Shown here: positions 33,432 through 59,493 of the stretch, piece by piece
Layout of the letters: the number at the start of each line of letters is the position of its first letter
How positions within the stretch are numbered: position 1 is the first letter of the stretch
Assembly (NCBI GenBank): GCA_965205025.1
Contig: CBDBFU010000032.1
Span: 32,001-96,000 of the forward strand
Origin: Candidatus Poribacteria bacterium
GTDB lineage: Bacteria; Poribacteria; WGA-4E; WGA-3G
Direction of reading: 5' to 3'
DNA length: 64,000 nt
Notes under the pieces: generated by a model
Database searches by the model: none
The model's input: the letters and a program-made list of their open reading frames with translations, nothing else
What the model was told of the DNA's origin: nothing
Position numbers and translations under genes: made by a program

Positions 33432-33466
33432 GGTGAATGACCTAATGTCATTCATACCGTTGATTC
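33432..33466 (+). mobile_element. 35-bp mini-element in CACCCC/GGGGTG hairpin loop
   Basis: Empty site at ~31505-31519. Confidence 0.7.
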
Positions 33467-33549
33467 GAGGGGTGATATGTCTATAGAAAAAGGTATATCA
33501 ACATCCTGCACTCCAGCGGAGTGCTATGTAGCATAACATACCGTAAAAT

Positions 33550-35016
33550 ATGAAAGTGGAACAACTGCATGGACCTGCAGTAAAACCGTCTCAAGTTGTT
33601 GAACTGGAATATCTTATACAATGCGATTCCCCTGAAATTTTTGGAATACATGGATTACAGAAAGAGGGGAGTATCATAGTAACACGAGCACCCGCGCGAC
33701 TTGACATTATGGGCGGGATAGCAGATTATTCTGGGTCAAATGTCTTTGAGATGACATTAAACCGAGCAGCTGTCGTCGCTTGTCAATCAAGAGAGGATAA
33801 TAATCTAAGAGCATTAACAATTCAACAAGTAGGTCTATTAAGACCATATTTTCAAATTACACTTGATGATTTTTACACTGATGGTTCATTGAAATCTTAT
33901 TCTGAAATTCGTAGTTTATTTAATGATGATCCTAAAACATCTTGGAGCGGGTACATACTTGGTTGCTTCTTCACTTTACTTAAAGAAAATAAAATTCAGA
34001 ATTTTCCACATGGCGCTGCTATTGCAATCAAAAGTGATATCCCAATGGGAGCAGGAATAGCATCTTCAGCAGCAATTGAAGTTGCAACCTTATGTGCTAT
34101 AAATCACCTTTACAATCTAAAATTAGAGGGAATTGAGATAGCCAGACTCGCTCAAATTGTCGAAAATAGAATTGTAGGTGCACCTTGTGGAATAATGGAT
34201 CAATTGACATCTGCTATTGGAACTCAAGGGAAGATTCTATCTATTCTTTGTCAACCTGATAAGATACTCGAATCCATAGAAATACCACATCAAGTTAGTT
34301 TTATAGGTATTCATACAAAAGTTCCTCGTAGTACAAAAAGTTCTGCCTATATTGACACACGAACAGCAGCCTTCATGGGATTACGTATTTTAAAAGAAAA
34401 ACTTAACTGGGATAAATTAGATGATAATTATCTATGTCATATAACTGTTCAAGAATTTCAGCAACACTGTTTGCCATTATTACCTAATGAAATGAAGGGG
34501 GTTGATTTTCTGGAGAAATATAACGGGACAGACGATAAGGTAACAGAAGTAGACCCTGATAAGGTTTATGCAGTTAAGGACAGGGTTAAACACCCGGTAT
34601 ATGAAAATGAACGTGTTAAACAATTTATCCATGCCATAAAAAATACTATAAAATATCCCAATAATGCCACGGAGTATTTATCAGAAGCTGGAACATTAAT
34701 GTATGAATCAAATGATAGTTATCGTGATTTAGCTGGACTGGGTTCACAGGAAATTGATGGACTTGTAAACATTGCAAGAAAAATTGGTGAAGATGCAGGA
34801 ATATATGGAGCAAAAATTACTGGTGGAGGCGGTGGTGGCACTGTTGCTATATTATGCTATGGAGATGTATCTATGGCATTGACACAGATCATCTCTGCGT
34901 ATAAATTGGCATGGGGAATCGAAACAGAAATCTTTGCCGGATCTACATACGGAGCATGTGAATTTGGACATATATTATGGGAGTTAAAAGAAAGTGAACC
35001 ACCAACTCATTTCTAA
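33550..35016 (+). CDS. GHMP sugar kinase (galactokinase / L-arabinokinase-like)
   Basis: RAPARLDIMGGIADYSG, GAGIASSAA, CGIMDQ, GAKITGGGGGG. Confidence 0.88.
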   Translation: MKVEQLHGPAVKPSQVVELEYLIQCDSPEIFGIHGLQKEGSIIVTRAPARLDIMGGIADYSGSNVFEMTLNRAAVVACQSREDNNLRALTIQQVGLLRPYFQITLDDFYTDGSLKSYSEIRSLFNDDPKTSWSGYILGCFFTLLKENKIQNFPHGAAIAIKSDIPMGAGIASSAAIEVATLCAINHLYNLKLEGIEIARLAQIVENRIVGAPCGIMDQLTSAIGTQGKILSILCQPDKILESIEIPHQVSFIGIHTKVPRSTKSSAYIDTRTAAFMGLRILKEKLNWDKLDDNYLCHITVQEFQQHCLPLLPNEMKGVDFLEKYNGTDDKVTEVDPDKVYAVKDRVKHPVYENERVKQFIHAIKNTIKYPNNATEYLSEAGTLMYESNDSYRDLAGLGSQEIDGLVNIARKIGEDAGIYGAKITGGGGGGTVAILCYGDVSMALTQIISAYKLAWGIETEIFAGSTYGACEFGHILWELKESEPPTHF

Positions 35017-35131
35017 CATGTTTTACACACTACCCTGGTGCCTCTGGTCTCTAATACCATATTCAATTGATACTCTTACATTATGATTTAAGTGAAACAA
35101 AAACAATCATATACAGATTTATTAGTCCCGT

Positions 35132-35248
35132 ATGAAGTTAAAAAAATAAAATAGGTAATTTGGACCCAGAGCTGGTAGGTGCGGTTTCCTAACCGCACCG
35201 GATTCTACAAGAAACTGGAAATTACCCGAATAAATTCTTTAACTTCAT
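35132..35248. mobile_element. MITE-A inserted in GTCCCGTAGGGA hairpin loop
   Basis: TIR ATGAAGTTAA; flanked T/T; nearly identical to 60540-60656. Confidence 0.85.
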
Positions 35249-38802: not shown

Positions 38803-38836
38803 GGTGAATGCCATAAGGCATTCATACCGTTGATTT
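38803..38836 (+). mobile_element. 34-bp mini-element in AGCCC/GCGGGGCG hairpin loop
   Basis: Empty hairpin AGCCCCAGCGGGGCG just upstream at ~38745. Confidence 0.7.
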
Positions 38837-39292: not shown

Positions 39293-41741
39293 ATGGCTAT
39301 TGAGAGCGCGGGAGCTTATGATGTATCTGTTATCCCACCAGATGTTGCTCGCGAAATTGAAATATATGAAATCAGACTTGGCCGCGCACAAGCAGGTCAA
39401 GGAGAGGAAAAAATCTGGACGGAATTTAGACTTCGTCATGGGGTCTATGGGCAACGTGATGATAGATCACAGATGATACGGGTAAAAATTCCATTCGGTG
39501 GACTTACCGCAGACCAACTTGAAATGTTAGCCGATGTCGCTGAAGAATTTTCCGATAATATCATTCACATTACAACACGACAAGATGTTCAATACCATTA
39601 TGTAGATATCAATCACACACCAGAACTCATGAGACGCCTGGCAAGTGTAGGTATTACAACCAAGGAAGCCTGTGGAAATGTCGTACGAAACGTTACAGCA
39701 TGTCCATTAAGTGGTGTGTGTCATGATGAATCTTTCGATGTCACCCCTTATTCAAAAGCTCTTTCCGCATTTCTATTGGGACATGAGGATGCAAAAGATT
39801 TTGGACGTAAATTCAAAATTGCATTTTCCGGTTGTGAAGAACACCCTTGCGGATTGGCAAATATGCACGACATCGGGGCAGTTGCAGCTGTAAAAGAGGT
39901 TGATGGGGAAGTTAAGAAGGGCTTTAAACTTTATGTTGGTGGTGGTCTTGGCGCTGTCCCACATCAAGCTAAAATCTTTGATGAATTTCTTCCAGCAGAA
40001 GAACTCCTTCCTATTTCTCAATCCATTTGTAGAGTTTTCACAAGATTAGGTGAACGAAAAAATCGGAATAAGGCACGTTTGAAATTTGTCATTGCTAAAT
40101 ACGGTATTGAAGAATTCCGTAAACTTGTCCTCGAAGATAGAGAAACATTAAGATATGACCCCGCTTGGACAGAATACCTTGATAATCTGGATGCCTATGA
40201 TGAAACACCCCTTAAACCACCTACACAACTCAACGGCGCATCAAATCCTGAAGGGTTTGATGAGTGGTATCAATCAAATGTTCGTTTACAACGTCAACCC
40301 GGTTATGCCTATGTAACGATTACACTTCCCCTGGGGGATCTAACTGCAGACCAAACCAGATCTTTAGCTGACATTTCACGTAAGTATGTAAAAGATACAA
40401 TACGTGCTACTGTTGAACAGAACATTGTACTACGATGGGTTACAATGACAGATCTACCCGCACTTTATAAAGAACTAACAGAGGTTGGTTTGGGTGATCC
40501 GGGGGCTGAATCCCTTGTGGATATTACCGCATGTCCCGGGACTGATTCATGTAAACTTGGAGTATCTTCTTCTCGTGGATTGGCTGGCACACCTCCGTGG
40601 ACATTTCATTGAAACTGGACATAAAGAAGATATAAAAGATTTCCGTATTAAGATAAGTGGATGTCCTAATTCCTGCGGACAACACCATATCGCAAATATT
40701 GGTTTCTTCGGTTCATCAAGGCGAATTGGTGAACATATTGCTCCGTACTATCAAGTTCTACTCGGTGGACACATGATTGAGAATGCCAGTTCCTATGGAC
40801 TTGCCACAGGAAAAATACACGGGAAGTATATTCCAGATTTCATTGAAGAATTAACAGGTAAATATTCTGATGAGAAGAATGGAGAAGAAACCTTTACTGA
40901 TTACGTCGCACGTCTCGGTAAAGCCGAAATCAAGCAAATCTTATCAAAGTATGATAAAATTCCTACTTATGAAGAAGCACCTGAATTCTATGTAGACACC
41001 GGTGACACCAAAGATTACCAACTCAAAACAGGTGTCGGTGAGTGTGCAGGAGAAGTCGTCGCACTTGTCTCTATGAAGTTAGATGAAGCCGATCGGTTAA
41101 TATATGAATCCGGTTTAGACTTAGAAAAAGGTGATTATCAAAAATCCGCTGAACTGGCTTTTAGTGCAATGATTAGAGCTGCAGATGGACTGCTAACGAC
41201 GGTTGGATTGCAATATATTGATGATGGAACAACCGTGAATGAATTCCGCACACACTTCTTTGAAGCTGGTAACTTCTTCCCAGGTTATGGGGGCACATAT
41301 ATTCAAGGCAACGGAAGAGGATGCATCTACATTTAACCAAGAATTGTCACACCGTCGTGTTGAGGAAGCCACTCTCTTTGTGGAAGAATCGCATAACGTG
41401 TACAATCGTATGCGGATTAAACAGGAAGAAGAGGAAGCAAGTCGGAAAAAGTCACGAAAATCCCGTACTGCAGCTAAACCGAAAGTCGTTAAAGAAACAA
41501 AGAAGGTTGAAGAAATCACTGACAGCCTTGATCTCAAAGGTGTTGCCTGTCCCTTCAACTATGTTTCAGGCTAAGGTACGGTTAGAGACTATGGATGTCG
41601 GTCAACTATTAGAAATCACCATTGACGATGGTGAACCAATTGAGAATGTACCCGTCAGTCTCTCTAATGACGGTCATGAAAATACTTGATACAAAGAAAA
41701 TTGGAAAACACTATCGTCTGACAATTAAAAAAGGTGAATAG
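39293..41741 (+). CDS. Siroheme nitrite/sulfite reductase with C-terminal TusA/SirA-like domain (split by apparent frameshifts)
   Basis: TTRQD, FSGC, CPGTDSCKLG, GCPNSCG; LDLKGVACP; pieces in four ORFs. Confidence 0.8.
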
Positions 41742-41976
41742 TTCACTTTTGTTGGAGATTTATTCTAAACCAATTTCAAGCGATTACCTACTAATGAAAT
41801 AGATAGGTAATCGCTTTCTTCATGAAAATACGAAATGCTAAAAAGCGTTGGATTTCCAGAATAACAAATTCCTAATGCATGAATTATTCATTCATGTCTT
41901 ATATAGTTTCTCTCCCTTGAAATATATCTATATATAAGATAAACTAATACTTAATACAAAACAAACTGAGGAAATT

Positions 41977-42852
41977 ATGCAAGATAACCAAGATTCAATC
42001 ACTCAGAATAATAATGAAACACCAACACTGAATTTGCAACCGATGCAATTATCAGACATACTTGACGGAATGTTTACGTTGTATAGGAATCATATTCGTC
42101 TCTATATTCATATTGTTGTCGTATTCTTCGCAATATCTTATGTTACAGATAAATTGTTAGTGTTTTCTCTACTAAACTCCGTGTCAGCAGGGAATTTTGG
42201 CGCGGTATTTTTATTATCCACCGTATCCATATTGTTATCCTTATATATCGTTGCGGTCTTGTCTTATGCGACAGCACATGTCTTTTTAGGACAAAACATC
42301 TCCACTGGAAATGCATTTTTACATACTTTGCGTCTATTTGCAAAATACCTTGTATGTGGTATAATCTATTTCTTAGTACTTGGTGGATTATCTATTACTA
42401 TAATCGGTATTCCTTTTGCTATTTATTTCTTTATTCGATGGGGATACTATACACTACCTCTTTTGTTAGAAGAAAAAACGATTATGGGTTCATTAAAACG
42501 GAGTTCGGAATTGGTAAAAGGAACTTGGTTACGAGTATTTGGTATTACGATTCTTATTATTCTTATTGTTCAAATGATTCAGACCATATTTTCTACATCT
42601 ATAGGTATGGTCTTCTCCTTAATTCCTGCAGCTTATGAAATACAGGACGTTAGCATTATTGAAAACTTAAGAAGATTATTCGCTCCATCACCTGTAGATA
42701 TCGGTTGGCCAATTTATTTGATACGAAGCTTTATTACAATGGGAATTCATTCAATCCTATTGCCAATTGCCTCAATCGGTGGAACGTTACTATATTTCGA
42801 CTTACGTATCCGAAAAGATGCGTATGACCTTGAAATGCAGGTTACAAATTAG
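41977..42852 (+). CDS. Membrane protein of MoxR-associated locus
   Basis: Multi-TM; LKRS.ELVKG.W and LYFDLRIRK motifs. Confidence 0.75.
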   Translation: MQDNQDSITQNNNETPTLNLQPMQLSDILDGMFTLYRNHIRLYIHIVVVFFAISYVTDKLLVFSLLNSVSAGNFGAVFLLSTVSILLSLYIVAVLSYATAHVFLGQNISTGNAFLHTLRLFAKYLVCGIIYFLVLGGLSITIIGIPFAIYFFIRWGYYTLPLLLEEKTIMGSLKRSSELVKGTWLRVFGITILIILIVQMIQTIFSTSIGMVFSLIPAAYEIQDVSIIENLRRLFAPSPVDIGWPIYLIRSFITMGIHSILLPIASIGGTLLYFDLRIRKDAYDLEMQVTN

Positions 42853-42883
42853 GAAGTTATCTCACAGGACATTATTACTAAGA

Positions 42884-44070
42884 ATGGAAAACCCTAAACC
42901 CACCAAACTTCCTTCTTTAATCCTTTCCCTCTATAAGGATAATATTGGCTTGTTTCTACGAATCATGCTACCTGTCGTTATCATAGCAATTATCCTTAAT
43001 ATCTTCGTATATTACTTGCATGTCAGTATGGTTGAACAGATTAACCCAGTACTACAAAGAACTATTGGGAATAGTCCTTCTCAATCTGATGAAAATAATC
43101 TTGATCAACAAGAAAACAGTGTATCAGTAAGGTTAAATACCAATGGAGGAATATCTCCTTTTCCTTCCGCACTCTACAAAGAATTCTCTTCTAACAAAGT
43201 AAAATATAATTGGACTCCTAATCATATAGAATCAACTGATCGCACACCTATATTTTGGCAAATATTACCTTATCCCATTGATAGGAAATATGAATGATTC
43301 AGTTGGTTGGAGTTGGTCAATCTCCTTTAGAACAATAGAATACACCCCTCTAATTCTTCTCATCTTCACCTTATGTCCACTATCAATCGTTGTAGCTTTT
43401 CAAATACAGACTTCAAATATAGATCAACCTGCAGGAATATCTCCACTGACAGCGCGTTCTGTATGGAAATATACAAGTAGTAGAGCACTGAAAGTATTAA
43501 TTATACCAATACTATTTATAGTAATTACCGAATTAAGTCGACATATCTATTTGTTGATTTCATTATTATTTCCAAGGCTACCCGTCTCTTACGATGGAAT
43601 ACCACTTGTACTTTTACACATGTTTGTTAATATCTATTTTCTGGTAACTCTAAGTCTTTATAATCAATGTATAATGTTCGAGAATAGGTCAATAATAGAT
43701 ATCTTCAAGAGGAGTCATTCACTTGTCAGAGGTGTGAGATTGAAGTATCTATCAATTTACTTACTGACTGCAGGGGGTAGCTGCCATCGTATCCTCAGTT
43801 CTTATGGGTTCTGCATTATTTGTTCTGTCTTTCTTCTTTACCGAACTTGCTCCAATTCAAGATGCATTAACACCACTCAAATTTCTGTCTCTCTTTACTG
43901 GTGGTGATGTCGCGGTAATGCTACCGGATAAGCTGGATATACTTCCTACAGTTTCAATTCTAATAGTTAGTGGCATTATTTCTACACTAATAGTTCCACT
44001 CTGGGCGATAGTTACCACACATTTATATAATGAGAGAATAGGTATGAAACCAAAGGTTATTGATGCATAA
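42884..44070 (+). CDS. Paralogous membrane protein (frameshifted across three ORFs)
   Basis: FKRSHSLVRG and THLY motifs parallel the upstream gene. Confidence 0.55.
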
Positions 44071-44708
44071 TGAGAGTAAGATTTCAGTATACAAGCTATG
44101 TTATAATAATTCTTCTAAGCTTACACTTTAATATTCACGCTGTTTCTCAAGAAAAAACACAGTATGATGAATTTAGATATACACAATCAAATCATAAAGT
44201 ATCCTATGATAAATACCATAAGGAACTAATGAAAATTCTGGAACCTGATCCAGGATTTTCTTTTAACATTGATTACATCATCCTCCCAATTGCAGTTATA
44301 GCCATAGGTATAGTTGTACTATATTTTGTAAGACAGATTCGGATGAATTATATCTTTGAAGCAAGAAACGAGGAAACCGATCCACAGGATGACAATGTGG
44401 AGACAGAAAAGAGTGCACTTGATCGTGCAGAAACAGCAATTGAAGCAAACGATTTTCGAGGAGCACTGAGATTCCTATATATCTCTGCTGTTCTACACTT
44501 ACAGGAATGTGGTATTCTCCCGTATGACAAGAGTATTACAAATCGTGAATACTTACAATTGGCACACACAGATCTTGATCTACAAGAGACATTAGCACCT
44601 ATAATAACAATCTTTGATGAGGTCTGGTACGGATATAAACATTGCGATGAACACACGGTAGAGAATTTTCGTGATACTTTGAAAGCAGTTTATGCAAGAA
44701 GTTCATAA
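44070..44708 (+). CDS. DUF4129-type protein
   Basis: ALRFLY, TNREY, FDEVWYG motifs. Confidence 0.75.
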   Translation: MRVRFQYTSYVIIILLSLHFNIHAVSQEKTQYDEFRYTQSNHKVSYDKYHKELMKILEPDPGFSFNIDYIILPIAVIAIGIVVLYFVRQIRMNYIFEARNEETDPQDDNVETEKSALDRAETAIEANDFRGALRFLYISAVLHLQECGILPYDKSITNREYLQLAHTDLDLQETLAPIITIFDEVWYGYKHCDEHTVENFRDTLKAVYARSS

Positions 44709-46892: not shown

Positions 46893-48247
46893 ATGCATCT
46901 TAGCAAACGACTGCTCTATTTTCTCATTCCTTTAGCTATTCCAATCATACTCGTCACAACCGTACCAATTTTATTATATATTGGTTGTTTTTATTTCCTT
47001 TTATTATTATGTGTTAGTGTGGTTGATTATGTGACGAATCCGTTTATCAAAGGAATTGAAATCAATCGTGAGGTTAACTCAAAATTTTCATTAGGTGTTG
47101 AAAACAGTGTTGTATTAAATATAATCAACCGAACCGAACAAACTGTGAATTTAACCATAAAGGATGATTTTCCTGACGAATTCATTTATAAGAATATAAT
47201 ACATAAATCTTCTGTACAGTCATCAGATTCAGCTCAGTTAACATATCATCTCACACCCATACGACGGGGATTTACGAATTTGGAAATATACATGTTCGCT
47301 GTTTGGGAAAATTAGGATTAGTACTTCGTCAGTTTAAAGTTATAGCAACAACAGAGATAAAGGTTTACCCTAATCTGCAAGCAATACGGGAATATGAGCT
47401 ATTAATAAAACGAGGAATGCTACAACAGATTGGTCTAAAAAGTTCACGCCTGTTCGGAGAAGGTACGGAAATGGAAAGATTAAGAGATTATACACCTGAT
47501 GATGACTATAGACGGATAGATTGGAAAGCTACTGCAAGGCATAGAAAACCCATCGTTAGAGAATATGAGACTGAAAAAAGTCAAGATGTGATAATAATGT
47601 TAGATACAGGCAGATTGATGGCTACACCAGTTAGGTTATCTAAACCTGATTTGCTGACCGATGAGGACAGTTTGAAATATTACATGTTGAAGTTGGATTA
47701 TGCTATAAACACAACACTAATGACAGCTTATGTCTCTACCCTCAGAGGTGATAAAGTCGGTTTACTTGCTTTTGCTGATAATGTTCACCAATACTTATCC
47801 CCTAAACCTGGGAAAAAGCAGTTCTTAACGATGTTAGAATCTACATACGCATTACCTGTGATTCCTGTAGAACCGGATTTTGAATCTGCATTTACATACC
47901 TTTCTACAAAACAGCGTAAACGGGCACTAATCATACTATTCACTGATATATTGGATAAAGATTCCGCTGAAGGTATCGCAAAATATGTTGCACAATTTTC
48001 CAAACACCATCTTGTTGTATGTGTAACATTGGCTGATTCGGGTATCATAGAATTATCAGAGAAAAAAGCCACAGATTCTAAATCTGTTTATCAAAAGGCA
48101 ATCGCAGAACGACTGTTACAAGAAAAATATGTTATATTAGAAGTGTTAAAACGTCAGGGCGTAATTGCAATTGATGTTCCTGCACATCAATTAACAATGG
48201 CAGTTATAAATAAGTATATGGAGTTAAAGGCGAAGTCTATGATTTAA
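46893..48247 (+). CDS. DUF58 protein (one apparent frameshift near 47270)
   Basis: LRDY..DDYRRIDWKATAR, LDTGRLM. Confidence 0.85.
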
Positions 48248-48360
48248 CCTTAATTGTCAATTATCAGAATGAAGACTTTTGCTATTTTCTTTGACACTCC
48301 AGAGAATAAACCTTATAATACTGTTGATAAAAATACAGAACACCTTATATATAGATCAAA

Positions 48361-48781
48361 ATGTCATCACGTAGAAAATCGCGCATCTTGGCGATGCAAA
48401 TCCTATATCAATCTCATCTCATAAAAACTCCTATCAATACAATTATCGAAGATTTTTTGAAAACTCAAGAGACCGAAGAAACACTCCATCCTTTTAGCGA
48501 AAAACTCGTAAAAGGAACAACTCAAAATCTTGAGAATATTGATGCTGAAATCAATGCTTCTTCAAAAAAATTGGAAAATGCATCGATTACCGATAGTTGA
48601 TTTGACTATTCTTAGGATTGCTACCTATGAAATACTCTATGTAGAAGAAATTGATGCTGCCACTTCTATCAATGAAGCCATAGAGATATCCAAATCATAT
48701 AGTACACAAGATTCACCAAAGTTTATTAACGGTGTCCTTGATAACATCCGAAAAACACACGAGAATACCACAAAGGACTGA
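48361..48781 (+). CDS. nusB: Transcription antitermination factor NusB (frameshift in an A run near 48565)
   Basis: RRKSR..AMQILYQ; INEAIEISKSY..KFINGVLD. Confidence 0.9.
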
Positions 48782-48829
48782 CATTTCTATAGTCCAAATA
48801 TACAACTCAATATTTCTCCACCAGACAAA

Positions 48830-50617
48830 ATGTCAAATCTCAAATCGTCCATTATCGTTTTTCTTTTTATACTTCCTTTCAATCTATTTGCTGCACAAGA
48901 ATACACATTCTTATATGAATTCGGTGAAAAAGGGGAAGGTGAAGGACAGTTTGCTAAGAAGTTATTCACAGCATTTGATAACGAGGGTGGAATTTATATT
49001 ACGGATACCGAGAATTATAAGATTCTAAAGTTTAATGAAACTGGAAGATTCATATCTGAGATCAAGGTTACAAAATCCTCTGATTTTCGATTCATAAATC
49101 CAACATCTATAACTATAGGTCTTGACAAATCAATTTATGTAATGGATTGGACTCTCATACACATTATAGGAACAAATTCCCCTAAGATATTTAACTACGG
49201 ACCATGCATACATAAATTCGATGAAAATGGTCTTTATATTACTACTATTACACTACAGGATTTAAGCAAACGACTTGATAAGCTTGAGTCTGCTTCTCCA
49301 GGATTAGATGGTGAAGGGAAATATGCACTTATAATCCCAAATGGCAACACAAAACGGAACTTTTTACTCACGATTGATTCTCAAGATAACCTATATATTT
49401 GTGATGATGGTACTATTTACAAACTTGATTCAGAAGGCGGACTGATAAGGAAATTCCCTATTTCTCAACCAGCGGTTGGACAGGTAAGAAAACCTACCGA
49501 TCTGACTGTAGATAAATCCGAGAATTTATATATTGTGGATGAAGATGGACACAGAGTCATCAAGTTTGATCCATCAGGAAAATTCAGTAAGTCAATCGGG
49601 GAATCTGGGGATAAAATTGGACAGTTTATTAAACCGTTTAAGATTGCAACCTTACATGATGGTTCACTACTTATTGCTGACAAAGCAAAATACCTAAAGG
49701 ACTTTTTATCTTCTTTACCTAAACGACTACATGATCCAACACCCCGATATGACGGGTTTTCAAGGTCGTTTCGATACCGCATTCGTAGAATACAACGAAT
49801 TAACACAAATGGTGAATTCACCCAACAGATTTTGATTCCATTTCAAAGAGAATCTGAAGAAGATGTCGGACTTAAACTGAAAGGTATTGATTATGATGGA
49901 AACTTATATTACTTAAACACAGAAAAATTACACTTCAGGAAATATACACCAAAATCCTCTTTGTTTTCTTCTATGTTTCAAACAGAACTAAAACTACGAT
50001 ATACACGTGATATTCAGGATGTTGAAATAGACAATCAAGACGATCTGGATGCTGATCTATATACAAAGTCTGATTTTGACGAAAAGATAATTCAGGATGC
50101 TGCAGATGCACATCTTACCTTTTCTTACGACTTTAATGAGAACTTTCGACTTGGAGTCTCCAACCAACTGACATTACTTAGAATGACAGATACCAGCTAT
50201 TATAGATCACGAGATTTTGAAGATTTTCGAGGTACATTCAATCAAGATGATGAGTCCACAGAAACCTCCTTAGATAACAGAATTCAGTTTGAATTAGTAT
50301 GGGTAAGAGACCACAGCATCTACAGATATCGTGAAGCTCGTTTATACGGTTATTTCAGTACAATCCGCCTTGATTTTATCAATGACGCATTAGACCGTAG
50401 TAATTATAGGTATTTCGATTTCTTCGCAAAACTGTCCGATTGGGGTGGTGGGATCAAATATGATCTAAACAGAACATTTAGATTAAATTTCGAAATTACA
50501 CATTTCTTTGGTAAGAATAGATACACTTATCATGACGAAACCAACGAACTTTATGCCACAGGAATGCAGCAGGCAGACACAATTCGAGCAGTTCTATATT
50601 TGTATGGTTTCTTCTAA
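48830..50617 (+). CDS. Secreted NHL-repeat protein with beta-barrel-like C-terminus
   Basis: G.GEGQF and F..P..I..D...YI.D repeats; alternating strands ending in FF. Confidence 0.75.
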   Translation: MSNLKSSIIVFLFILPFNLFAAQEYTFLYEFGEKGEGEGQFAKKLFTAFDNEGGIYITDTENYKILKFNETGRFISEIKVTKSSDFRFINPTSITIGLDKSIYVMDWTLIHIIGTNSPKIFNYGPCIHKFDENGLYITTITLQDLSKRLDKLESASPGLDGEGKYALIIPNGNTKRNFLLTIDSQDNLYICDDGTIYKLDSEGGLIRKFPISQPAVGQVRKPTDLTVDKSENLYIVDEDGHRVIKFDPSGKFSKSIGESGDKIGQFIKPFKIATLHDGSLLIADKAKYLKDFLSSLPKRLHDPTPRYDGFSRSFRYRIRRIQRINTNGEFTQQILIPFQRESEEDVGLKLKGIDYDGNLYYLNTEKLHFRKYTPKSSLFSSMFQTELKLRYTRDIQDVEIDNQDDLDADLYTKSDFDEKIIQDAADAHLTFSYDFNENFRLGVSNQLTLLRMTDTSYYRSRDFEDFRGTFNQDDESTETSLDNRIQFELVWVRDHSIYRYREARLYGYFSTIRLDFINDALDRSNYRYFDFFAKLSDWGGGIKYDLNRTFRLNFEITHFFGKNRYTYHDETNELYATGMQQADTIRAVLYLYGFF

Positions 50618-50619
50618 TA

Positions 50620-50740
50620 TGGATTTCCTTGGATATGGAATCTGCAGCCTTACTATCAGGTGTGACACCATCCGTCAGATCAAAGTGATGAAAAGTGCCT
50701 GTCAAAACATCAAAGCAAAGTTGGAGTTTCAAGTGGTGTG
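50620..50740 (-). pseudogene. IS4 transposase fragment
   Basis: KLQLCFDVLTGTFHHFDLTDGVTPDS resembles KLHLRFDVATGTFEHFQLTNGITADS of 6333-7652. Confidence 0.75.
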
Positions 50741-50767
50741 AATGCTTCGTCTCTGTGAGATTAATTG

Positions 50768-51682
50768 TTATAATGGGAGTGGAATCTGATCTGTATAAGC
50801 ACTGATACGTTCATTAGCTAAGTCAATATATTTTTTCTCAATATCGTAGCCAATATAATGTCGTCCAGCTTTGAGCGCAGATAGACATGTTGTCCCACTT
50901 CCACAAAATGGGTCCAACACAACATCACCTTCAAAGGTATAGAGTTGAATGAGTCGATAAGGTAGTTCTTCAGGAAACGGAGCTGGATGTCCGATACGTT
51001 TCGCTGAAACGGATGGAAATGTCCAGATACTTTTTGTCCACGCTAAGAAATCTTCTTTATTTATAGTATTCTCTTTATCATTACGTTTTCGTGAAAATGT
51101 GTCTTTTGAAAAAACAAGAATATATTCGTGGACATCTCTTAGTACTGGATTTGTAGCAGACAACCAACTTCCCCATGCAGTAGAACTTCCTGCACTGGAC
51201 GCTTTATCCCAGATGATTTCGCCGCGCATATAGTAGCCTATTTCTAACATATCTTCTATGATGAAACTATGCAGCGGGATATACGGTTTTCGTCCTAAAT
51301 TTGCGATATTAATGCATGCCCTACCCCCTGTAACTAATTTCTTGTAGGTTTCTGAAAAAACAGAACGCAGAAGTTCTCTATATTCCTCTAAGGATAAATC
51401 ATCGTCGTATTCCTTTTTAGCATTATAGGGTGGAGATGTAACCATGAGATGGATGCTACTATCTGGAATATCAGACATATTCTCACTGGATGTACAATAG
51501 AGTTGGTTCAGGTTTTCATCAGGAATTGTGTTTTCTATCCACTCATCAGGTTCGGGTAGTTCCTGATCTGCATAGAGTTTCCCTCTATAGAATTCACTGG
51601 AATCGTGATTGATTCTTCCAGTTGTTCCGAATGCACTTGTCTGTGTTCCTTTTTTTTGAGTGTCAGAATCTGTTTTATCCAT
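50768..51682 (-). CDS. Orphan N4/N6 DNA methyltransferase, beta class
   Basis: TSPPY precedes HPAPFP and DPFCGSGTT. Confidence 0.9.
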   Translation of the reverse strand: MDKTDSDTQKKGTQTSAFGTTGRINHDSSEFYRGKLYADQELPEPDEWIENTIPDENLNQLYCTSSENMSDIPDSSIHLMVTSPPYNAKKEYDDDLSLEEYRELLRSVFSETYKKLVTGGRACINIANLGRKPYIPLHSFIIEDMLEIGYYMRGEIIWDKASSAGSSTAWGSWLSATNPVLRDVHEYILVFSKDTFSRKRNDKENTINKEDFLAWTKSIWTFPSVSAKRIGHPAPFPEELPYRLIQLYTFEGDVVLDPFCGSGTTCLSALKAGRHYIGYDIEKKYIDLANERISAYTDQIPLPL

Positions 51683-51696
51683 TACTTCTATCCACC

Positions 51697-52908
51697 CTAA
51701 TACCTGTCTGGATACCAATAAATCACATCACGTTTTGGAAACAATAAACCTAAAAACGCAGAGACTTCATCTGGAACTGATTCACCTGTATTCGCCTGTT
51801 CCCAGCTAATATCCCCAAATAAGAGTCGCCAGAAATCCTCTTCACTCATGTCTAATTGAATAGCATCCGAATCATTTTCTACAATCTGAATCGTTTCATT
51901 CCCATCATAACGCAACACTGCTTGTTGACCGTTAACAGTGGAAAATACGACTGCAAGTTGGGGGATCGATTTATCAGAATCCACAATTTTAGATTCCCAA
52001 TCTACCACGAAACGTCTCAGTAGTGTAGTAAGGCTAATCGCATAAAGCATCATATTTGTATGTATCGTAGTGTTGACCTCATTTCCAACTTCTACTATCA
52101 GACGTTCTACAAAAGGATGTTTAGGTGTAAACATGCCTCTGATAGCTTCTATCTTCTCTTGTTCACATACTTGTAAGAGATGGTTTATAAGTGAGTCTAT
52201 TGCATTTGGATATTCAGGTAAATATCCTACTTCACGAATATCCATACCTGTTTCATCAATTTCATAGTTTAAATATCCAACTGGGTTTCCATTTTGATGT
52301 GCCACAACGGTTGGAAGGATATTGCGTATTCGGGAGGGTTCCATATTCCAGTAGGAACGTGTTCGAGAAATAGCTCCACTCTGGTGTGCGTTGGAGATAT
52401 CGTAAATTGATGCCACAGCATCTAAATCAGTCTCTAAATTAAAATCACTTATCTGATACGTTGATTCCTCAATATTCCTCTCTGTTGAGTTGATCAGTAA
52501 ATTGAAACCTTCTATGGGTAAGGAAGTCCATCCAAATCGTTCGTAGAATTCCTCTGGAATGATAGTAAACAGGATACCAAGGTCGTATCCTTCCGTTTTA
52601 AAATATTCTACGGTCTGACGCATGAGGGCAGATGCATAACCTACACCTTGATATTTAGGATGTGTACATACACCACCGATACCTCCCATGGTTACGAGGG
52701 AATCACCCATCCTCATCCTACGTTCCCAGATACGCAATGTTGAAACAACAACATCGTTCACAACAACGACCCTTGTCTGTTGAAGTCTGTAGCTGCTATC
52801 CCCTTTTACATACTGCCAGTATCGTTCCTGTTGATTTGGATTGAAGGCTATACAGTTTAGTTCAACTACCTGTTCTAATTCTGATTCGCGTGCTGCTCTA
52901 ATTTCCAT
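51697..52908 (-). CDS. Eis-like GNAT acetyltransferase
   Basis: GIGGVCTHPKYQGVGYAS..FYERFGW; tandem GNAT domains plus SCP2-like tail. Confidence 0.85.
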   Translation of the reverse strand: MEIRAARESELEQVVELNCIAFNPNQQERYWQYVKGDSSYRLQQTRVVVVNDVVVSTLRIWERRMRMGDSLVTMGGIGGVCTHPKYQGVGYASALMRQTVEYFKTEGYDLGILFTIIPEEFYERFGWTSLPIEGFNLLINSTERNIEESTYQISDFNLETDLDAVASIYDISNAHQSGAISRTRSYWNMEPSRIRNILPTVVAHQNGNPVGYLNYEIDETGMDIREVGYLPEYPNAIDSLINHLLQVCEQEKIEAIRGMFTPKHPFVERLIVEVGNEVNTTIHTNMMLYAISLTTLLRRFVVDWESKIVDSDKSIPQLAVVFSTVNGQQAVLRYDGNETIQIVENDSDAIQLDMSEEDFWRLLFGDISWEQANTGESVPDEVSAFLGLLFPKRDVIYWYPDRY

Positions 52909-52927
52909 TAATATTCCTTGTAACATC

Positions 52928-53977
52928 TTACTTCATTGTAAAAACAACGCCTAAAGCATCAGCGGGTGTTTCAATCAATTTGTCACACCCATCTGCAGCG
53001 TTGTCAATTGGAAGTAAATCAGTAATTAAATGTCCAACATTGATTTTACCTTCAGACATCAATCTAAGGGATAATTCTAAGTTGCGTTGAGTTGGCCACG
53101 GCACAAAAACCGGTGGATAGTCAGCGCCGTGTTCATAATCCTCATCGTGATATCCTGGACCTGTGCGTGCAGCACTGATAACATCAACGTTTCCAAGTCC
53201 TGCTGCAAACCCGTGTGTAATACTGGCACCACCGACAATGACGATTCGACCCATTTTGTGTGTATCGGGTGCTGTCTTTAACATTGCACGAATCTGTTGA
53301 AATGCACCGCTGGCATCTCCCCCGAAGGCGATGATTCCACAATCCATGCCGTATCCTCTCGTGAATTCAGCTGCAATTGGAATCGGATCTGTTTCAGACA
53401 CATTTATTGCTTTGTCTACACCTGCATTTTTGGCAATCTCTAACCGTAATGCAAAATTATCTAAACCGATGACATACGCACCTGCAATTTTTGCGATCTG
53501 ACATGCGAATTGTCCAACGATACCCAAACCTGCTACCACAACATTCTCTCCGATCCGTATCCGTCCACGTTGAACTGCATGGAGTGCTGTTGCTGCAAGG
53601 TGGATGGATGCGGCGTGTTCGTCCTTAACGTTTTCTGGAATCTTCGCACAAAGGTTATGGGGAACACACGCATAGGTTGCATGTAATGCGTAACCTCCTC
53701 CCATGCCTGCCACTCTGTCCCCGATCTCAAATTCATCACAATCTCCCTCTTTACCGATAACAACCCCCGCATTAGTATATCCGAAGGGTCGCTTATTTTC
53801 AGGAGATCCCGGGTTCTCTCGTCTTCTTTTCATCCCACCCAATTCCGTCCCTGGACTCACCATCGATGCGTGGACTTCAATTAGTAATTGTCCCGGTTTT
53901 GGATTAGGTGTTTCCTGTTCCTCTGTTGTAATATAACCGGCATCGTTCCGCATCACAACTTTTCTGATTTTACTCAT
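52928..53977 (-). CDS. MDR / zinc-type alcohol dehydrogenase-like oxidoreductase
   Basis: SPGTE, GY..AG.V, GLGIVG. Confidence 0.88.
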   Translation of the reverse strand: MSKIRKVVMRNDAGYITTEEQETPNPKPGQLLIEVHASMVSPGTELGGMKRRRENPGSPENKRPFGYTNAGVVIGKEGDCDEFEIGDRVAGMGGGYALHATYACVPHNLCAKIPENVKDEHAASIHLAATALHAVQRGRIRIGENVVVAGLGIVGQFACQIAKIAGAYVIGLDNFALRLEIAKNAGVDKAINVSETDPIPIAAEFTRGYGMDCGIIAFGGDASGAFQQIRAMLKTAPDTHKMGRIVIVGGASITHGFAAGLGNVDVISAARTGPGYHDEDYEHGADYPPVFVPWPTQRNLELSLRLMSEGKINVGHLITDLLPIDNAADGCDKLIETPADALGVVFTMK

Positions 53978-54436
53978 TTCTGTTACCTTTATAGCAGTAG
54001 TATCAATTCTTATCGTATTTTATTCTATTTCTGATTTAGTGTCAAATCATGAAGGTGGTAAGGGTGTGTAAAGTAATTGTCACTTTATTTAACACCAATG
54101 ATATCTCAATTCCAATTCATCCAGTCTGAATTTCGAGATTTACAGCTTATTCTTTGCTACTATAATTTTGACAATTCTATTTCAAGGGTAACTGAGAATC
54201 TAATGATAAGTCTATTTTTTGGAGTTTTCTATATCAAAAATACCGTACTCCAGCGGGGTACTATGTGTCTATAGAAAACAATATCGGAACAATCTGGCAC
54301 TCCAGCGGAGTGCTATGTCCTAATCCACTATGAATGTTTAGTGACAAATACTATACATACCCAGGTGGTAAGTTTAAAATTAGTCCCTCATTGTTCCAAC
54401 GGAATGTTTATAGCAAAAGTGTCTATCCCAATAATT

Positions 54437-54631
54437 GAGTCGCGGGGAATGCCAAAAGGCATTCCCCGGTGAATGTCTAATGAGGATTAAGTAAATATTT
54501 CGGTAATCCAGTCCATAAACTTATCGTAGGGGCGGGGTTAACCCGCCCGTATATTACCGAATTAATAAATTAATCTTCATATGTCATTCATTCCGTTGAT
54601 TTCTTGATTTGGTAGGGACGAAATGTCTATA
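54437..54631. mobile_element. Nested stack: REP > mini-element > mini-element > MITE-A (54480-54580) > REP
   Basis: Each layer matches stand-alone copies elsewhere in the window. Confidence 0.7.
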
Positions 54632-54942
54632 ATATAATATCAAAATCCGTGAAAACAACAAATACAATCCGTTAACTAGCGCAAGTCGTTAATTAGTTTT
54701 GTTAAAGTTGCACCGAAGATAGTATATGATATATGAGTATCCACTTATTTGGTGTTTTTTGTGTGATAATTATGAGAAAGGTGATACAATTAACAACTAC
54801 AATTATCTTGATATATTGTAGGTTTTCTATAGTACATCACATCGTATATGTAGTCCGGCACACTCAAATATCGACGCATTTATGTTCTTTTCCCAGTTGA
54901 AAAGGACTGAAATCAGTCCAACCTATAAGGAAGATAGCATCA

Positions 54943-55134
54943 GTGAGATTTTTAGAGAAAAAAGCTGCTTTGCGTAAGCAAAGGACATTCTGGCGCATGA
55001 TTAGACTAATTCTGTTTATTGTGTGCGTATTTTTTGCAATCTATCTGACTATAACTCTAAACAAGTTAAAAATAGAGCATAAAGATTACACAGATATCCC
55101 TACACCAACACACGAATTCATCCCTGACCGTTAA
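54943..55134 (+). CDS. Small single-TM protein
   Basis: AAGGAAG RBS, GTG start, hydrophobic helix. Confidence 0.5.
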   Translation: MRFLEKKAALRKQRTFWRMIRLILFIVCVFFAIYLTITLNKLKIEHKDYTDIPTPTHEFIPDR

Positions 55135-55286
55135 CGTTATAATTTTGACGAGGTTGAAATGAAAAAAGTTTCTGTTCACTCACAATTTAGACAAACTGAT
55201 CAACAATCATCCACTTGCAAAAGACTACCACATAAATGAGATCAGTATCACCCTCAATAACATAAAGTTTGAAATAAGGAGGACAA

Positions 55287-55418
55287 ATGGATTTACGTAA
55301 GTTACGGGAAAACTCAGATTCGGAACTCCAGCAGTTTAAAAGAAATATGAAAGCTTATGCTCGGTTCTTTAGCACTTTGCTTACCATATTTTCTATCGCT
55401 ATGCTAATTTTCCTATAG
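55287..55418 (+). CDS. Small 43-aa protein with C-terminal TM
   Basis: Strong AGGAGG RBS; MDLRKLRENSD..LLTIFSIAMLIFL*. Confidence 0.5.
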   Translation: MDLRKLRENSDSELQQFKRNMKAYARFFSTLLTIFSIAMLIFL

Positions 55419-55469
55419 TTTTGAAAGAGAACACATCAAATTTATACAAAATTTAGGAGATTGATCCTG

Positions 55470-56168
55470 ATGAAAAATCAACGAAACGTACCAAGACATA
55501 TTGTGATAGGAACAATTTGCCTTGTAATGATGGGTTGCTTAACATTGTACTTTGTTTTTTATCGATCTCAGCTAAACGTTGATCCAATAAAAAAGTATAA
55601 CACTATTACCATTACACAAAAAGATTCTGTTGAAACAATTGAAAAATCTGTATCATCAGCATCGGATACTGCAGATACAGAAGGTATCAAGGAAACTTTG
55701 AGTAAAGCAGAAACTGTCGTCATGTCAACTTCCGAAAACTCCAGTAATGTAGCCTTTCCAGTTGATGAGAACCGACAGATTAAGTCCGAACAAGATTCAC
55801 AGAAAAGCGTAGCAGTCTCTACTAAATATGCAGAAAATATGAGGATCCTGATGGAAGCAATGGAGACTCTAAAGAAGGCAGATGACACCCTAGCACGACA
55901 TAAACAATTCATGGAAATTCTAGACACGGTACCTATCTCCCAACACCAAGGAAAATTACCTGAGAATGTAGTCGAAGATCTACTTAATCAACTTGTCCCC
56001 AATTTGGTTGAGGAATTGAACACACTTTCTGCAACAGAACAACGCGAACTTATTACCCAGTTGCGACCATTGATGAAAACAATGGTTGAAGCGCAAACCC
56101 AGGAGTCCGATTCAGCCGATGTTCTCTTAAAAATGCTTCGTGCTCATGGGTTTGAACCGAAGTTTTGA
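55470..56168 (+). CDS. Membrane-anchored helical hypothetical protein
   Basis: AGGAG RBS; N-terminal TM. Confidence 0.65.
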   Translation: MKNQRNVPRHIVIGTICLVMMGCLTLYFVFYRSQLNVDPIKKYNTITITQKDSVETIEKSVSSASDTADTEGIKETLSKAETVVMSTSENSSNVAFPVDENRQIKSEQDSQKSVAVSTKYAENMRILMEAMETLKKADDTLARHKQFMEILDTVPISQHQGKLPENVVEDLLNQLVPNLVEELNTLSATEQRELITQLRPLMKTMVEAQTQESDSADVLLKMLRAHGFEPKF

Positions 56169-56654
56169 GAATGGAGGTTGCTTGAAAATATGACTGAAGA
56201 TCCAGAGTTCAAGAAAGAAGTACAATCCTTGCTGTCAGATACATTTCGTGAGTAGTTGTTTGTTTTTACAAAGTTTACGGCGTGAAGGTTTCTCATTCCT
56301 TCACACCACTCTCAATATATTAGGCATTATAACGGAGTAAATTGTAATACCATTTCCAATTGATTAATTTACATTATGACTTAAGTAAAACTGGGATAAT
56401 CATATACAGATATATGAGTCCCGGGGTAGGTATTGAGTCCCATAGGGACGGAATGTTTATAGCAAAGGTGTATAGCCCCATAATTGAGTCCCGGGGAATA
56501 CCTAAATAGCATTCATACCGTTGATTCCTTGATTCGAGGGACGGAATGTTTATAGAAATCGTTATCACCATTATACCAAGCCTAGCGGGGCAAAAGGTGT
56601 ATCCCTAAATTGACGCCTATATCTATTATTGAAACAACCCAACCAAGTCGTAAT

Positions 56655-59119
56655 TTATCTTTTATCGTTAGATATAACAGTTTCCCTAAACCAACACCGC
56701 CTCCCATCAGTTTTCAAAATAATCGCACCGAGTTGGTCCGTACGGAGTTGAATACAGTTCCGATCCTGATACCGAGAAACAACATCTGCATGTGGAAATT
56801 GATACCGATTCCCTTTACCCAGAGAATAGATAGCATAACGTGGTTGAACCGCATCCAAAAATTCTGCAGTACTTGACGTCCTACTTCCATGATGCGGAAC
56901 CTTTATTATTTCTGACCTTAGATCTTGTTGAGATGTCAATATACGTTTTTCAGCATTGGCTTCTATATCTCCACTAAACAATATATCCACCAAACCGTAG
57001 CTAACTTTCAACACCAATGAATCGTCATTCTTATCATCATCTATAAGATTTGTCTCATCTGCATCTATTGGGTGGAGTAGAGAAAGCGTTGCAGAAGGCG
57101 TGAATTCTATTTTCCCAGCATAGGGATAGGAATACGGTAGTTTTTGGGTTTTTGCAATGTTCCGTAGACGATTATGTGTTGATGAATCCAGTTCCATATC
57201 CGGAATTCCAATGAAATGTTTAACATTATAGTTTTGTAGTATGTAAGCAAGGCCACCACCATGGTCTAAATCCGGAATGTGTTAGCATAACCATATCAAC
57301 ACGTCTGATATTCTCAGAATCAAGATAGGGTTCAATTATCCGTTTACCTACATCATACTCCACTTCACGTTTCTTCTTTTCATTATAATAGGCATGTTGG
57401 ATACCCCCATCTACCAGCATAACCTGTTTATCAGGAAACCTGATAACTGCGGCATCACCTTGACCAACATCCAAAGTGGTTATTTCTAAGAGTCTACCCT
57501 CTTCTTTAAATCCTCTATCCCACACCCAGATTGTCAGAATTGATAATCCGATAAGACTCGCTATCCTCCACTGTTCATATAGATAACGCCACTGTGTAGC
57601 ACATATACATATCACGATGTAAATAAAGATAAGACCTATCGTTGGTGGAGCAATCTTTACTATCCCCCAATCTTGTCCAAATAGACTTATGAGTTTGAGG
57701 AATATATGCATAATAATCTGATTTATTATCCCTAACAATTTCGCTAATGGTAGCCAAATAAACCCAACACACACAGATGCCATTCCAACACCAACAATTA
57801 ATGACACAAGACCAACAGCAAACGGACCGACAATTATACCTAAGGGGTATGTTCTATAAAAATGGTAAGCGATAAGAGGAGAAGTGCCAATTTGTGCTGC
57901 CAAGGTTACCAGATAGGACAATACCAACCATTTTACTGCCGATCTTCTCATTTTTTGAAAATGGGTATACTCCACAGACTCCTCTGTATCCCAGAACTTT
58001 CGGAACGGTTTCTCCATTTTAGATACAAAGAATACAATTGCAGCAACCGCAACAAAAGAGAGTTGAAAACCTACATCCCATAACTGAGTAGGATTAATTA
58101 AAAGCAATACCAGTGCAGCAACCGCAAGTAAATTGTAAATATCCGCGTCCCTGTCAATAATTGTTGCAAACAGAAACAAGATCGCCATTAACGATGCACG
58201 AAATACTGAAGGACGAAAACCGACTAAACTCGCATAGAGAATTACACCTAAAATTGTTAGAAGACATACCATCTTTTTCGGCATCCGAAATATTGACAGT
58301 CCAAGGTAACAAAACAGTGCTATAAGACCTACATGTAATCCTGACACTGCAAGAACATGGAATGTTCCACTGTTCCGAAACATATCCAATGTTTCTGTCG
58401 GTACATCTCCTCGTTTTCCAAGTAGAATGCCTTTTAAGAGTTGAGCATGGAGTGATATTTCATTTTTAGGTGATGTATCCTGTTTTGAATAAGCATAATC
58501 AATAATCCGTTCTGTTCGAAAACGTAGTGATTCTATCCATCGTAATGGTAGGAATCCCGATTGTTTTCCAATTTGTAGTAATCCTTGGTGTTGGATAATT
58601 CCAGTTACATTTTGGCGTTCGAGATATGCTCGGTAATCAAACCCTCCAGGATTCCGTTTTGATTGGGGTTGCTGTAATACACCTGTTATAGTCAGATGTT
58701 TCCCGTATCGTAGTGAAACCAGATCTTGAAATCTTATTAAGCACTTAGCAGACACAGATTTGGTAGGATCAGATAATAGCTGAATCTTACCTACAGCATA
58801 GCATGCATCCCATGATTCTCCCCGTTCAGGTTGATAAACAGTTTTCCCTGTAAAACTGATCGGTTGTTCATAGAAGTTATCTGGTATTGATGGAACTGTT
58901 GCAACATCTAAACGCAACATACCACTGGCAAACACAGCAATATGTAAAAGTGTATAACAGATGTATTTTGATCGTTTTCTGGTGAAGATGCAACCCATCA
59001 GAAGTATCAGTACGGAAACCCAAATCCATAATAATGGAATTGATGTATACTCACCAGTGATGATACCTAAAATGAATGGAATAAGAAAAAAATAAGGCAG
59101 GACGAGACTTGAATGTCAT
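56655..59119 (-). CDS. comEC: Competence protein ComEC/Rec2 (frameshifted)
   Basis: NPGGFDY, HVLAVSGLHVG, GFQLSF, DVGQGDA, PHHGS. Confidence 0.9.
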
Positions 59120-59372
59120 TGATAAATGTAATACCATTTTCAATTGATACACTTACGATTTAAGTGAAATAGGAACAATCATATATAGATTTATGAGTCC
59201 CGTAGGGACGAAATGTCTATAGAAAACGGGTTTATCCACTATCTTGAGTCCCATAGGGACGGAATGTTTATAGAAGTCAATATCACCAATACCCTAAGCC
59301 CCAGAGGGGCGAAAGGTTTGTAGAAAACGGTGAACCCACCAAACAAGCCCCAGCGGGGCGAAAGGTGTATCC

Positions 59373-59493
59373 CTAAATTGACGCCTATAGTGCGGTGAAT
59401 CAACGGTATGAATGCCATAAGGCATTCCCCGGGAAACCGCACCTACCGGGTTTGGGAAAAATAGAATTACCGAAATATTTACTTAATCCTCAT
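59373..59493. mobile_element. IS4 end abutting a REP hairpin that holds a 34-bp mini-element, within a MITE-A half
   Basis: CTAAATTGACGCCTATA|GTGCGGT[59397-59430]GGGAAACCGCAC..TTAATCCTCAT. Confidence 0.75.

Follow-up and report, generated by a model that had tools for sequence, protein, structure and literature searches.

A 34-35-base hairpin-and-tail element inserted in the loops of other palindromic repeats in Candidatus Poribacteria

Results

The stretch analysed here, a 64,000-nt window from a Candidatus Poribacteria genome (coordinates count within the window unless a contig is named), carries five copies of a 34-35-base element that consists of a bulged hairpin (GGKGAATG-loop-CATTCATACC) and a tail (GTTGATTY). 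The genome holding the window, G000, is a 5.66-Mb assembly in 33 contigs, with ~38% G+C and 95.5% completeness. The original prediction had placed these five copies in four families of hairpins and had pointed to one empty hairpin near 31505, and all of these were recovered when the sequence was read again and searched with the 17-base tail CATTCATACCGTTGATT. The tail is present without mismatch at 33449, 38819, 56510 and 59398 (the last on the minus strand) and with one mismatch at 54585. A sixth match at 13544 has three mismatches and no hairpin, and is read as chance. Six matches in the window compare with 0.41 expected by chance, and none of 100 shuffles reached six. Across G000, the tail is found 286 times with at most two mismatches and 263 times with at most one, and 200 strict full arrays were counted.

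Copy 1 (33432..33466, plus strand) is a full 35-base element with the hairpin module GGTGAATG-ACCTAATGT-CATTCATACC and the tail GTTGATTC; computed on the element as single-stranded DNA, as were the other folds, its fold has an energy of -6.7 kcal/mol and a z score of -3.3. It lies in the loop of a hairpin resembling a repetitive extragenic palindromic (REP) sequence (33426..33474, plus strand), whose arms are CACCCC and GAGGGGTG. When positions 33418-33482 are folded, the inner hairpin remains enclosed by the paired arms of its host (-12.6 kcal/mol, z -4.2). The empty paralogue of this host, CACCCC-A-GAGGGGTG, reads at 31505..31519 on the plus strand, where it had been predicted, and the family has 27 matches genome-wide, counting both strands. 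Copy 2 (38803..38836, plus strand) is a full 34-base element in a GCCC(A)..GCGGGGCG hairpin (-8.4 kcal/mol, z -4.4), and an empty hairpin of the same family, GCCCC-AGC-GGGGC, can be read at 59347..59359 on the plus strand. Copy 5 (59397..59430, minus strand) is again a full 34-base element, in the loop of a GTAG-tagged hairpin, GGTAGGTGCGGTTTCC..ACCGCAC (-7.1 kcal/mol, z -3.0).

The two remaining copies are damaged. Copy 3 is directly preceded by a perfect palindrome, GGGGAATGCCAAAAGGCATTCCCC (54444..54467), in which two left halves of the hairpin module stand head to head. Its left part, GGTGAATGTCTA (54468..54479), is separated from its right part, ATGTCATTCATTCCGTTGATTT (54581..54602, with the one mismatch in the tail), by a 101-base IS630-type miniature inverted-repeat transposable element (MITE) in the loop (54480..54580, with ends ATGAGGATTAAG.. 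and ..TTAATCTTCAT), and an extra tail unit, CTTGATT, follows (54603..54609), all on the plus strand. Copy 4 (56493..56527, plus strand), in a GTCCC..GGGAC hairpin, has a decayed stem (GGGGAATAC..) and no fold (-0.3 kcal/mol, z +1.0), and it too is followed by an extra CTTGATT (56528..56534, plus strand). The hosts of the five copies thus belong to four hairpin families, namely CACCCC..GAGGGGTG, GCCC(C/A)..GCGGGGCG, GTCCC..GGGAC (twice) and GGTGCGGTTTCC..ACCGCAC. Four of the five copies form a hairpin of 7-10 pairs, with energies of -6.7 to -8.4 kcal/mol and z scores of -3.0 to -4.4. The internal hairpin with variable stem and loop that had been described therefore stands for these four and falls for the copy at 56493, in which the stem is mutated.

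The hairpin module consists of GG(G/T)GAATG, two variable stem bases, a loop of 4-5 bases, the matching bases and CATTC-A-TA-CC, with a two-base bulge that, in the GGTG form, is spanned by pairing between the outer GG and the CC of ATACC. The 200 strict copies follow a common plan, (C)GG(G/T)GAA(T/C)G, 7-10 inner bases, C(A/G)TTCATACC and GTTGATT, followed by C (154 copies) or T (46 copies). In an alignment of 57 distinct copies from G000, its congener G052 and two genomes of the sister genus (G151 and G136), six of the ten stem pairs change on both sides, in 26 cells, which none of 500 shuffles reached, and control structures slid by one to three columns gave far lower covariation. In G000 alone, three stem pairs exceed 5000 shuffles (0, 3 and 0 of which reached the observed value). 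Alignment columns 26-37, covering ATACCGTTGATT, are invariant across the two genera. Both the shape of the stem and the sequence of the unpaired flanks are consequently constrained. The fixed unpaired parts are (C)GG on the 5' side and ATACCGTTGATT on the 3' side, with no GTAG or CGTC tag. As had been predicted, the tail is asymmetric and there are no terminal inverted repeats, the ends being GGKG.. and ..GTTGATTY. The element is strictly intergenic, as none of the 263 tails falls inside proxies for open reading frames (ORFs; at least 200 residues, covering 77.6% of the genome).

The element really inserts into hairpin loops, where it replaces a loop base and makes no target duplication. That it inserted follows from an orthologous empty site and from paralogous empty sites. 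In the spacer between a membrane-fusion gene and a GHMP-kinase gene, the related species G004 has CTTACCCC-A-GAGGGGTG, where the window has CTCACCCC, 35 bases and GAGGGGTG; the spacer otherwise aligns with G004 nearly base for base. The flanks of copy 1 match the filled paralogue less closely (94% alike) than they match the G004 orthologue. Among the paralogous sites of G000, the empty form accounts for 108 of 114 family matches in GCCCC-AGC/AGA-GGGGCGAAA, 202 of 205 in GTCCC-GTA/ATA-GGGAC and 40 of 42 in CTGATAAGGGG-GAT-TTAGGGGG, and empty GGT[TG]CGGT-TTCCTA-ACCG[AC]AC forms are present in the GTAG-tagged family that hosts copy 5.

According to the flank tables of G000, filled forms have one junction and one orientation per host family. 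Three families have C plus the element where their empty forms have a dinucleotide that ends in A (CA, TA or GA); the GTCCC family, and a second site in the GTAG-tagged family, have one or two extra bases instead. C stands at position -2 of the element in 186 of the 200 arrays. At the orthologous and paralogous junctions alike, target duplication is absent and one or two loop bases are replaced, in agreement with the predicted exchange of one A without duplication. When the other four window copies and ~60 kb of three other G000 regions were compared with G004 and G018, the spacers were non-collinear or differed by whole composite repeats, and no further clean orthologous pair was found.

The arrays record how the element enters copies of itself. 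Hairpins and tails occur in equal numbers in 165 of the 200 arrays (one of each in 141, two in 23 and three in one). The unequal arrays have one hairpin with 2-5 tails (31), two hairpins with 3, 5 or 6 tails (three) or five hairpins with four tails (one), and none of the 200 has two hairpins and one tail. The nested order is always outer hairpin, inner hairpin, GTTGATT and then CCTTGATT, which indicates that a whole unit entered between ATACC and GTTGATT of an older unit, whose old G is now C. G000 has 16 copies of a subfamily in which a stem pair has undergone a compensatory change (GAACG/CGTTC). They occupy at least four kinds of context, being nested in outer variants, lodged directly in the loops of two host families or, in one case, placed behind another repeat. 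The 10 nested copies lie in seven different outer hairpin variants, and all 10 continue with CCTTGATT. Octamer arrays of at least two units come after CGTTGATT in 15 of 17 cases and are a by-product of the element. Head-to-head palindromes of two left halves, as before copy 3, occur five times in the genome (C2, C14, C15, C29 and window 54444-54467), with flanks of two different hosts; G000 has no tail-to-tail counterparts, and the palindromes look like inversion or hairpin-mediated joining at the loop.

To map the distribution of the element, 151 genomes from across the phylum were searched for the tail, one mismatch being allowed. It is present in all 37 genomes of the same genus (excluding G000), at 2-549 copies per genome, and in 53 of 57 genomes of the sister genus, at 1-167 copies. 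It is absent from the five genomes of three other genera of the family, and all other families of the phylum gave single matches at chance level. Viral contigs gave five exact 17-mer matches, none with a hairpin, which we attribute to chance. Copy number varies up to 270-fold between congeners, and the genes of congeners are often only ~70% identical. The dominant subfamily depends on the species; G043, for example, has many CGTTC forms. Between the two genera, genes are only ~70% alike and the 17-base tail is the same. Copies of the sister genus (L114-L142, in G151 and G136) have the same tail with other stems, such as GAAGCCC/GGGCTTC and TCTATGCC/GGCATAGA, and their tail arrays are built of 6-7-base units, not octamers.

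Neighbouring copies also tend to share a strand. For G000 neighbours at least 5 kb apart, 92 pairs lie on the same strand versus 34 on opposite strands, whereas an IS630-MITE control gave 10 versus 10. All hairpin repeat families of G000 keep a common strand over 100-300 kb and then switch together, which the same control does not do, and strand clustering in G052 is similar. IS200/IS605 elements are linked to the lagging-strand template, and by analogy a comparable link is possible for the strand clustering seen here.

IS630-type sequences both interrupt copies of the element and carry copies of it. The ends of the MITE at 54480-54580 match those of a 1.2-kb element with a 404-residue IS630-like frame, and full 1.2-kb elements of this type lie at the same loop position in four other copies (G000 C7, C12, C18 and C20); the MITEs found in element loops measure ~100-130 bases. 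No plain TA duplication is visible at the junctions of these loop insertions. Of 590 IS630-type ends, 36 abut the left half of the element and 21 the right half, and the IS630-type elements have 28-base inverted ends of their own inside the hairpin loop. The 51 tails that lack an adjacent left half show recurrent distances of ~131 bases (the MITE) and 1257-1260 bases (the IS630-type insertion sequence), with no other ORF-bearing form among them. The genome was thus checked, as had been advised, for both halves flanking a longer ORF-bearing element, and interrupted copies hold only unrelated IS630-type elements. A match to clustered regularly interspaced short palindromic repeats (CRISPRs) had also been suggested as a check; a crude spaced-repeat scan of G000 returned tandem arrays of REPs and three loci (C13, C14 and C18; contents unexamined) and no regular array of the element, and cas genes were not searched for.

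The element also moves together with its hosts. Two insertion contexts are inside an IS630-type MITE, which G000 has and G004 lacks. Taken with the way in which hairpin variants follow host families (see Discussion), these contexts indicate that many copies travel with host repeats. Chimeric flanks, with the left arm of one host family and the right arm of another, were seen as well, and would fit deletion between neighbouring direct copies.

The original prediction had proposed a mobiliser of the HUH/Y1, IS110 or reverse transcriptase type. G000 has three intact genes for REP-associated tyrosine transposases (RAYTs) of 157-162 residues (L001-L003, at C27:72619-73089, 86984-87454 and 53023-53493; Pfam Y1_Tnp, 100 bits), two of them identical, and these are its only Y1/HUH genes. 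The closest relatives of the gene are in metagenome-assembled genomes of Candidatus Poribacteria, at 64-75% identity. The genes are flanked by tandem direct REPs, GAGTCCCGTAGGGACGGAATGTCTATAG, upstream and by inverted copies downstream, a layout classical for RAYTs, although these REPs belong to another family (GAGTCCCGTAGGGACGGAATG) than the element. Just before each RAYT start codon, a tail unit is fused to the right arm of a REP, CGTTGATT(T/G)GGTAAGGAC. No IS110 DEDD, RVT_1 or TnpB gene was found in G000 at its 95.5% completeness. TnpB does not track the element across relatives and is most plentiful where element copies are fewest, with TnpB and element counts of 97 and 2 in G003, 94 and 5 in G057, 30 and 9 in G009, 0 and 263 in G000 and 0 and 171 in G004. 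An IS605-type element of G052 has ends unrelated to the element. RAYT, other Y1, TnpB, IS110 and reverse transcriptase genes do not match the distribution of the element.

A second, divergent RAYT family is found in relatives. At L154 (G017:C1:313500-317800), its flanks are inverted hairpins of the GTAG-tagged family to which the host of copy 5 belongs; these hairpins persist in G000 (236 matches on both strands), and the divergent RAYT was not found there.

Around the copies in the window, contigs from Logan over 41500-61499 end at repeats, with breaks near 54132, 54554, 56462, 56541 and 59198. The 2.6-kb spacer at 54055-56670 contains a 235-residue frame (55461-56168) with no Pfam match, and unalignable DNA takes its place in both relatives, with only ~1.2 kb in G004 and 0.4 kb in G018. 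Next to it, a ComEC-like protein is present as two adjacent minus-strand frames, 56655-57197 (180 residues, with a weak metallo-beta-lactamase match) and 57226-58998 (590 residues, with Competence and DUF4131 domains), which may be a split or frameshifted gene.

Discussion

We put the probability at about one in two that these 34-35 bases form a non-coding, non-autonomous mobile module, moved by an enzyme that acts in trans. In so far as the original prediction spoke of a minimal non-autonomous element, its non-coding sequence and its orthologous and paralogous empty sites bear this out. In the mechanism that we propose, a folded single strand would be recognised by a strand-specific enzyme supplied in trans, with the bulged hairpin giving the strand and the fixed flanks giving the cut sites. 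The enzyme would cut its target after CC at an exposed hairpin tip and join the unit in. After such rare primary events, most copies would increase in number as passengers of the REP hairpins and IS630-type MITEs in which they lie, and direct copies could recombine to yield chimeric flanks.

Several observations weigh against this proposal. The hairpin variant tracks the host family, with 23 of 24 copies in one MITE context, 14 of 17 in GTCCC and 12 of 14 in CTGATAAGGGG agreeing, so that transposition is not needed to account for much of the spread. Outside its own host family, the variant of copy 1 (loop ACCTAATGT) does not occur, which implies that the donor was a paralogue of the same family, and homology-assisted copying would also fit. 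Junction details vary by one or two bases among host families, which is untidy for a single precise enzyme. Only one orthologous pair is clean, the other compared spacers differing by whole composite repeats. Six inverted pairs of the element were examined in G000, and none has a shared gene inside. Strand clustering is absent in the closed genome G043 and only mild in G017; the weak GC skew does not allow the strand bias to be linked with replication, or the strand switches to be equated with origin and terminus, the cumulative GC and TA skews being noisy and defining no replichores. Finally, the RAYT of the G000 type is patchily distributed, as the search of 39 genomes of the genus found it in only 21. 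Those that lack it include G052 (549 copies), G017 (454 copies), G046, G002, G048, G012, G010, G001 and G004, which hold between 131 and 549 copies, and in the closed genome G048, which has 205 copies, there is no match to Y1 of any kind.

The first alternative dispenses with a dedicated enzyme, so that a few ancient chance insertions would have spread by hitch-hiking, short-tract gene conversion or template switching among paralogous hairpin repeats. The tracking of variants by host family and the confinement of the copy 1 variant speak for it, as do the whole composite repeats that carry the element in G000 and are absent in G004, and the existence of high-copy genomes that lack candidate transposases. 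However, one exact, non-homologous nesting joint is common to many outer and inner variants, and homology-guided switching predicts arrays of two hairpins and one tail, a form that the 200 arrays do not include. The varied contexts of the GAACG subfamily, at least four of them unrelated, speak against pure hitch-hiking. In addition, the identity of the tail across two genera points to a constraint such as protein recognition, and the flanks of copy 1 resemble the G004 orthologue more closely than the filled paralogue. On balance, we regard spread with no enzyme of its own as possible, though doubtful.

A REP-type element might instead be served in trans by a Y1 HUH transposase, either the RAYT of G000 or one since lost, which would treat the folded single strand like one of its own REPs, cutting and rejoining it. 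In its favour are the three intact RAYT genes, which have REP arrays on both sides and a fused tail unit directly upstream. The element and the REPs are furthermore alike in their bulged hairpin, fixed unpaired flanks, lack of target duplication and regional strand clustering, and of four divergent RAYT loci in relatives, one (in G004) has arrays of the element within ~330 bases upstream. However, the other three have no element within ~1.7 kb, the REPs that flank RAYT genes are of the GAGTCCCGTAGGGACGGAATG family, and the element never flanks a RAYT in inverted pairs, nor does it have the GTAG or CGTC tag as defined in the relevant passages of PMC3733652. Copy number is also unrelated to the gene. 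For example, G003 has the RAYT and only 2 copies, while G052, G017, G046, G002, G048 and G004 lack it and have 171-549. As neither the RAYT nor any Y1 gene tracks the element across relatives, the HUH/Y1 mobiliser originally proposed is not borne out, and we consider this explanation unlikely.

We judge it very improbable that the element is a structural site that serves its host (a protein-binding or RNA-level site, like the motifs of bacterial interspersed mosaic elements, BIMEs) and is kept by selection without being mobile. Conservation of the sequence across two genera, compensation in the stem and strictly intergenic placement would agree with such a role, but congeners have anywhere from 2 to 549 copies, orthologous sites differ in presence, copies nest in one another and decay, and no Rfam family matches positions 30000-62000 at E up to 1. 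That the element is an excision scar, the two ends of a longer element or a stray CRISPR repeat is scarcely credible, since the 21 tails preceded by an IS630-type end and the CRISPR-like size and hairpin-plus-tail shape (a resemblance only) are outweighed by IS630-type insertions that bring their own inverted ends into the loop and account for the longer forms, by the location of most of the 590 ends elsewhere, by the majority of loops being uninterrupted, with 200 full arrays, and by the outcome of the spaced-repeat scan.

The claim that no equivalent has been described was too strong, as accounts of the small dispersed repeats (SDRs) of Nostocaceae are in print and REPs appear there as a known insertion target. 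SDR1-8 of Nostocaceae were reportedly presented by Elhai et al. in 2008 (Genome Res 18:1484). Passages in PMC4390886, PMC5861425 and PMC13756078 describe SDR1-8 as dispersed and apparently mobile repeats of ~21-27 bases with no known transposase, place the insertion of SDR5 between bases 3 and 4 of the HIP1 palindrome, and, where they cite earlier work, report no SDRs outside Nostocaceae. Like SDRs as so described, the element is well under 100 bases, dispersed and precisely inserted in other repeats, which is a likeness of kind. Unlike them, it occurs in Poribacteria, is longer (34-35 bases), ends in a fixed tail from which octamer arrays are built, and enters its own copies at a single joint. 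Membership of an SDR family, to which G+C content and heptamer-like repeats had pointed by suggesting a heterocystous cyanobacterium, was dropped, the host being Candidatus Poribacteria-like.

In the passages of PMC3733652 that concern them, REPs are defined by a conserved tag, GTAG or CGTC, which stands at one hairpin end. The element resembles REPs and REPINs, as these passages and those of PMC3116915 present them, in being a short intergenic hairpin with hundreds of copies, a preserved structure, fixed unpaired bases and no target duplication. REPs and RAYTs of the known kind are present in G000, where the REPs serve as hosts of the element. The element differs from them in having no tag, forming no inverted doublets, flanking no RAYT and reaching copy numbers that are independent of Y1 genes. 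Insertion sequences that target the palindromic units of BIMEs or REPs are known from titles in the reference list of PMC3116915 (J Bacteriol 181:6929; Tobes and Pareja 2006). They share with the element a target that is the hairpin of another repeat; judged by those titles, they are full-size and have their own transposase gene, in contrast to 35 bases with no gene.

Miniature, palindrome-associated elements derived from IS200/IS605 have neither inverted ends nor target duplication, depend on hairpins and insert in one orientation, 3' of a short fixed motif and with no target bases lost. The element is similar in its single orientation, the run of C before it and the lack of duplication, but one or two target bases are replaced. 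It also differs from these miniatures in having a single hairpin rather than distinct left and right ends that each form a hairpin and match a TnpA/TnpB element, besides which the IS605-type ends of G052 are unrelated and G000 has no TnpB. The absence of terminal inverted repeats and of target-site duplication separates the element from DDE-type MITEs, and CRISPR repeats would form regular arrays of a kind that the crude scan did not return for it. The element is the same kind of thing as SDRs and REP elements, and lacks what defines REP/RAYT systems, IS200/IS605 miniatures, DDE MITEs and CRISPR repeats. Searches of the literature for REP or MITE repeats in Poribacteria, or for insertion into the loops of palindromic repeats, returned nothing relevant.

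A more specific version of the trans-acting enzyme is that the element and its Poribacteria relatives are moved by an enzyme outside the families tested, which would read the bulged single-stranded hairpin and the fixed 12-base tail and insert the 35-base unit at hairpin tips by loop-base replacement. We offer this tentatively and think it improbable; if true, the smallest class of mobile DNA would be shown to transpose by a new chemistry. How the smallest bacterial repeats move, including REPs and the SDRs of cyanobacteria, is still largely an open question, and this family offers clear rules with which to approach it, namely a fixed joint of self-insertion, tail counts that record events, replaced loop bases, a variable stem between frozen flanks and copy numbers of 2-549. 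The contrasts in copy number should let phyletic profiling find the mobiliser, and the junction rules are suited to oligonucleotide tests. For sponge symbionts such as these, nesting of the element explains the fast turnover of intergenic DNA and the breaks of short-read assemblies there.

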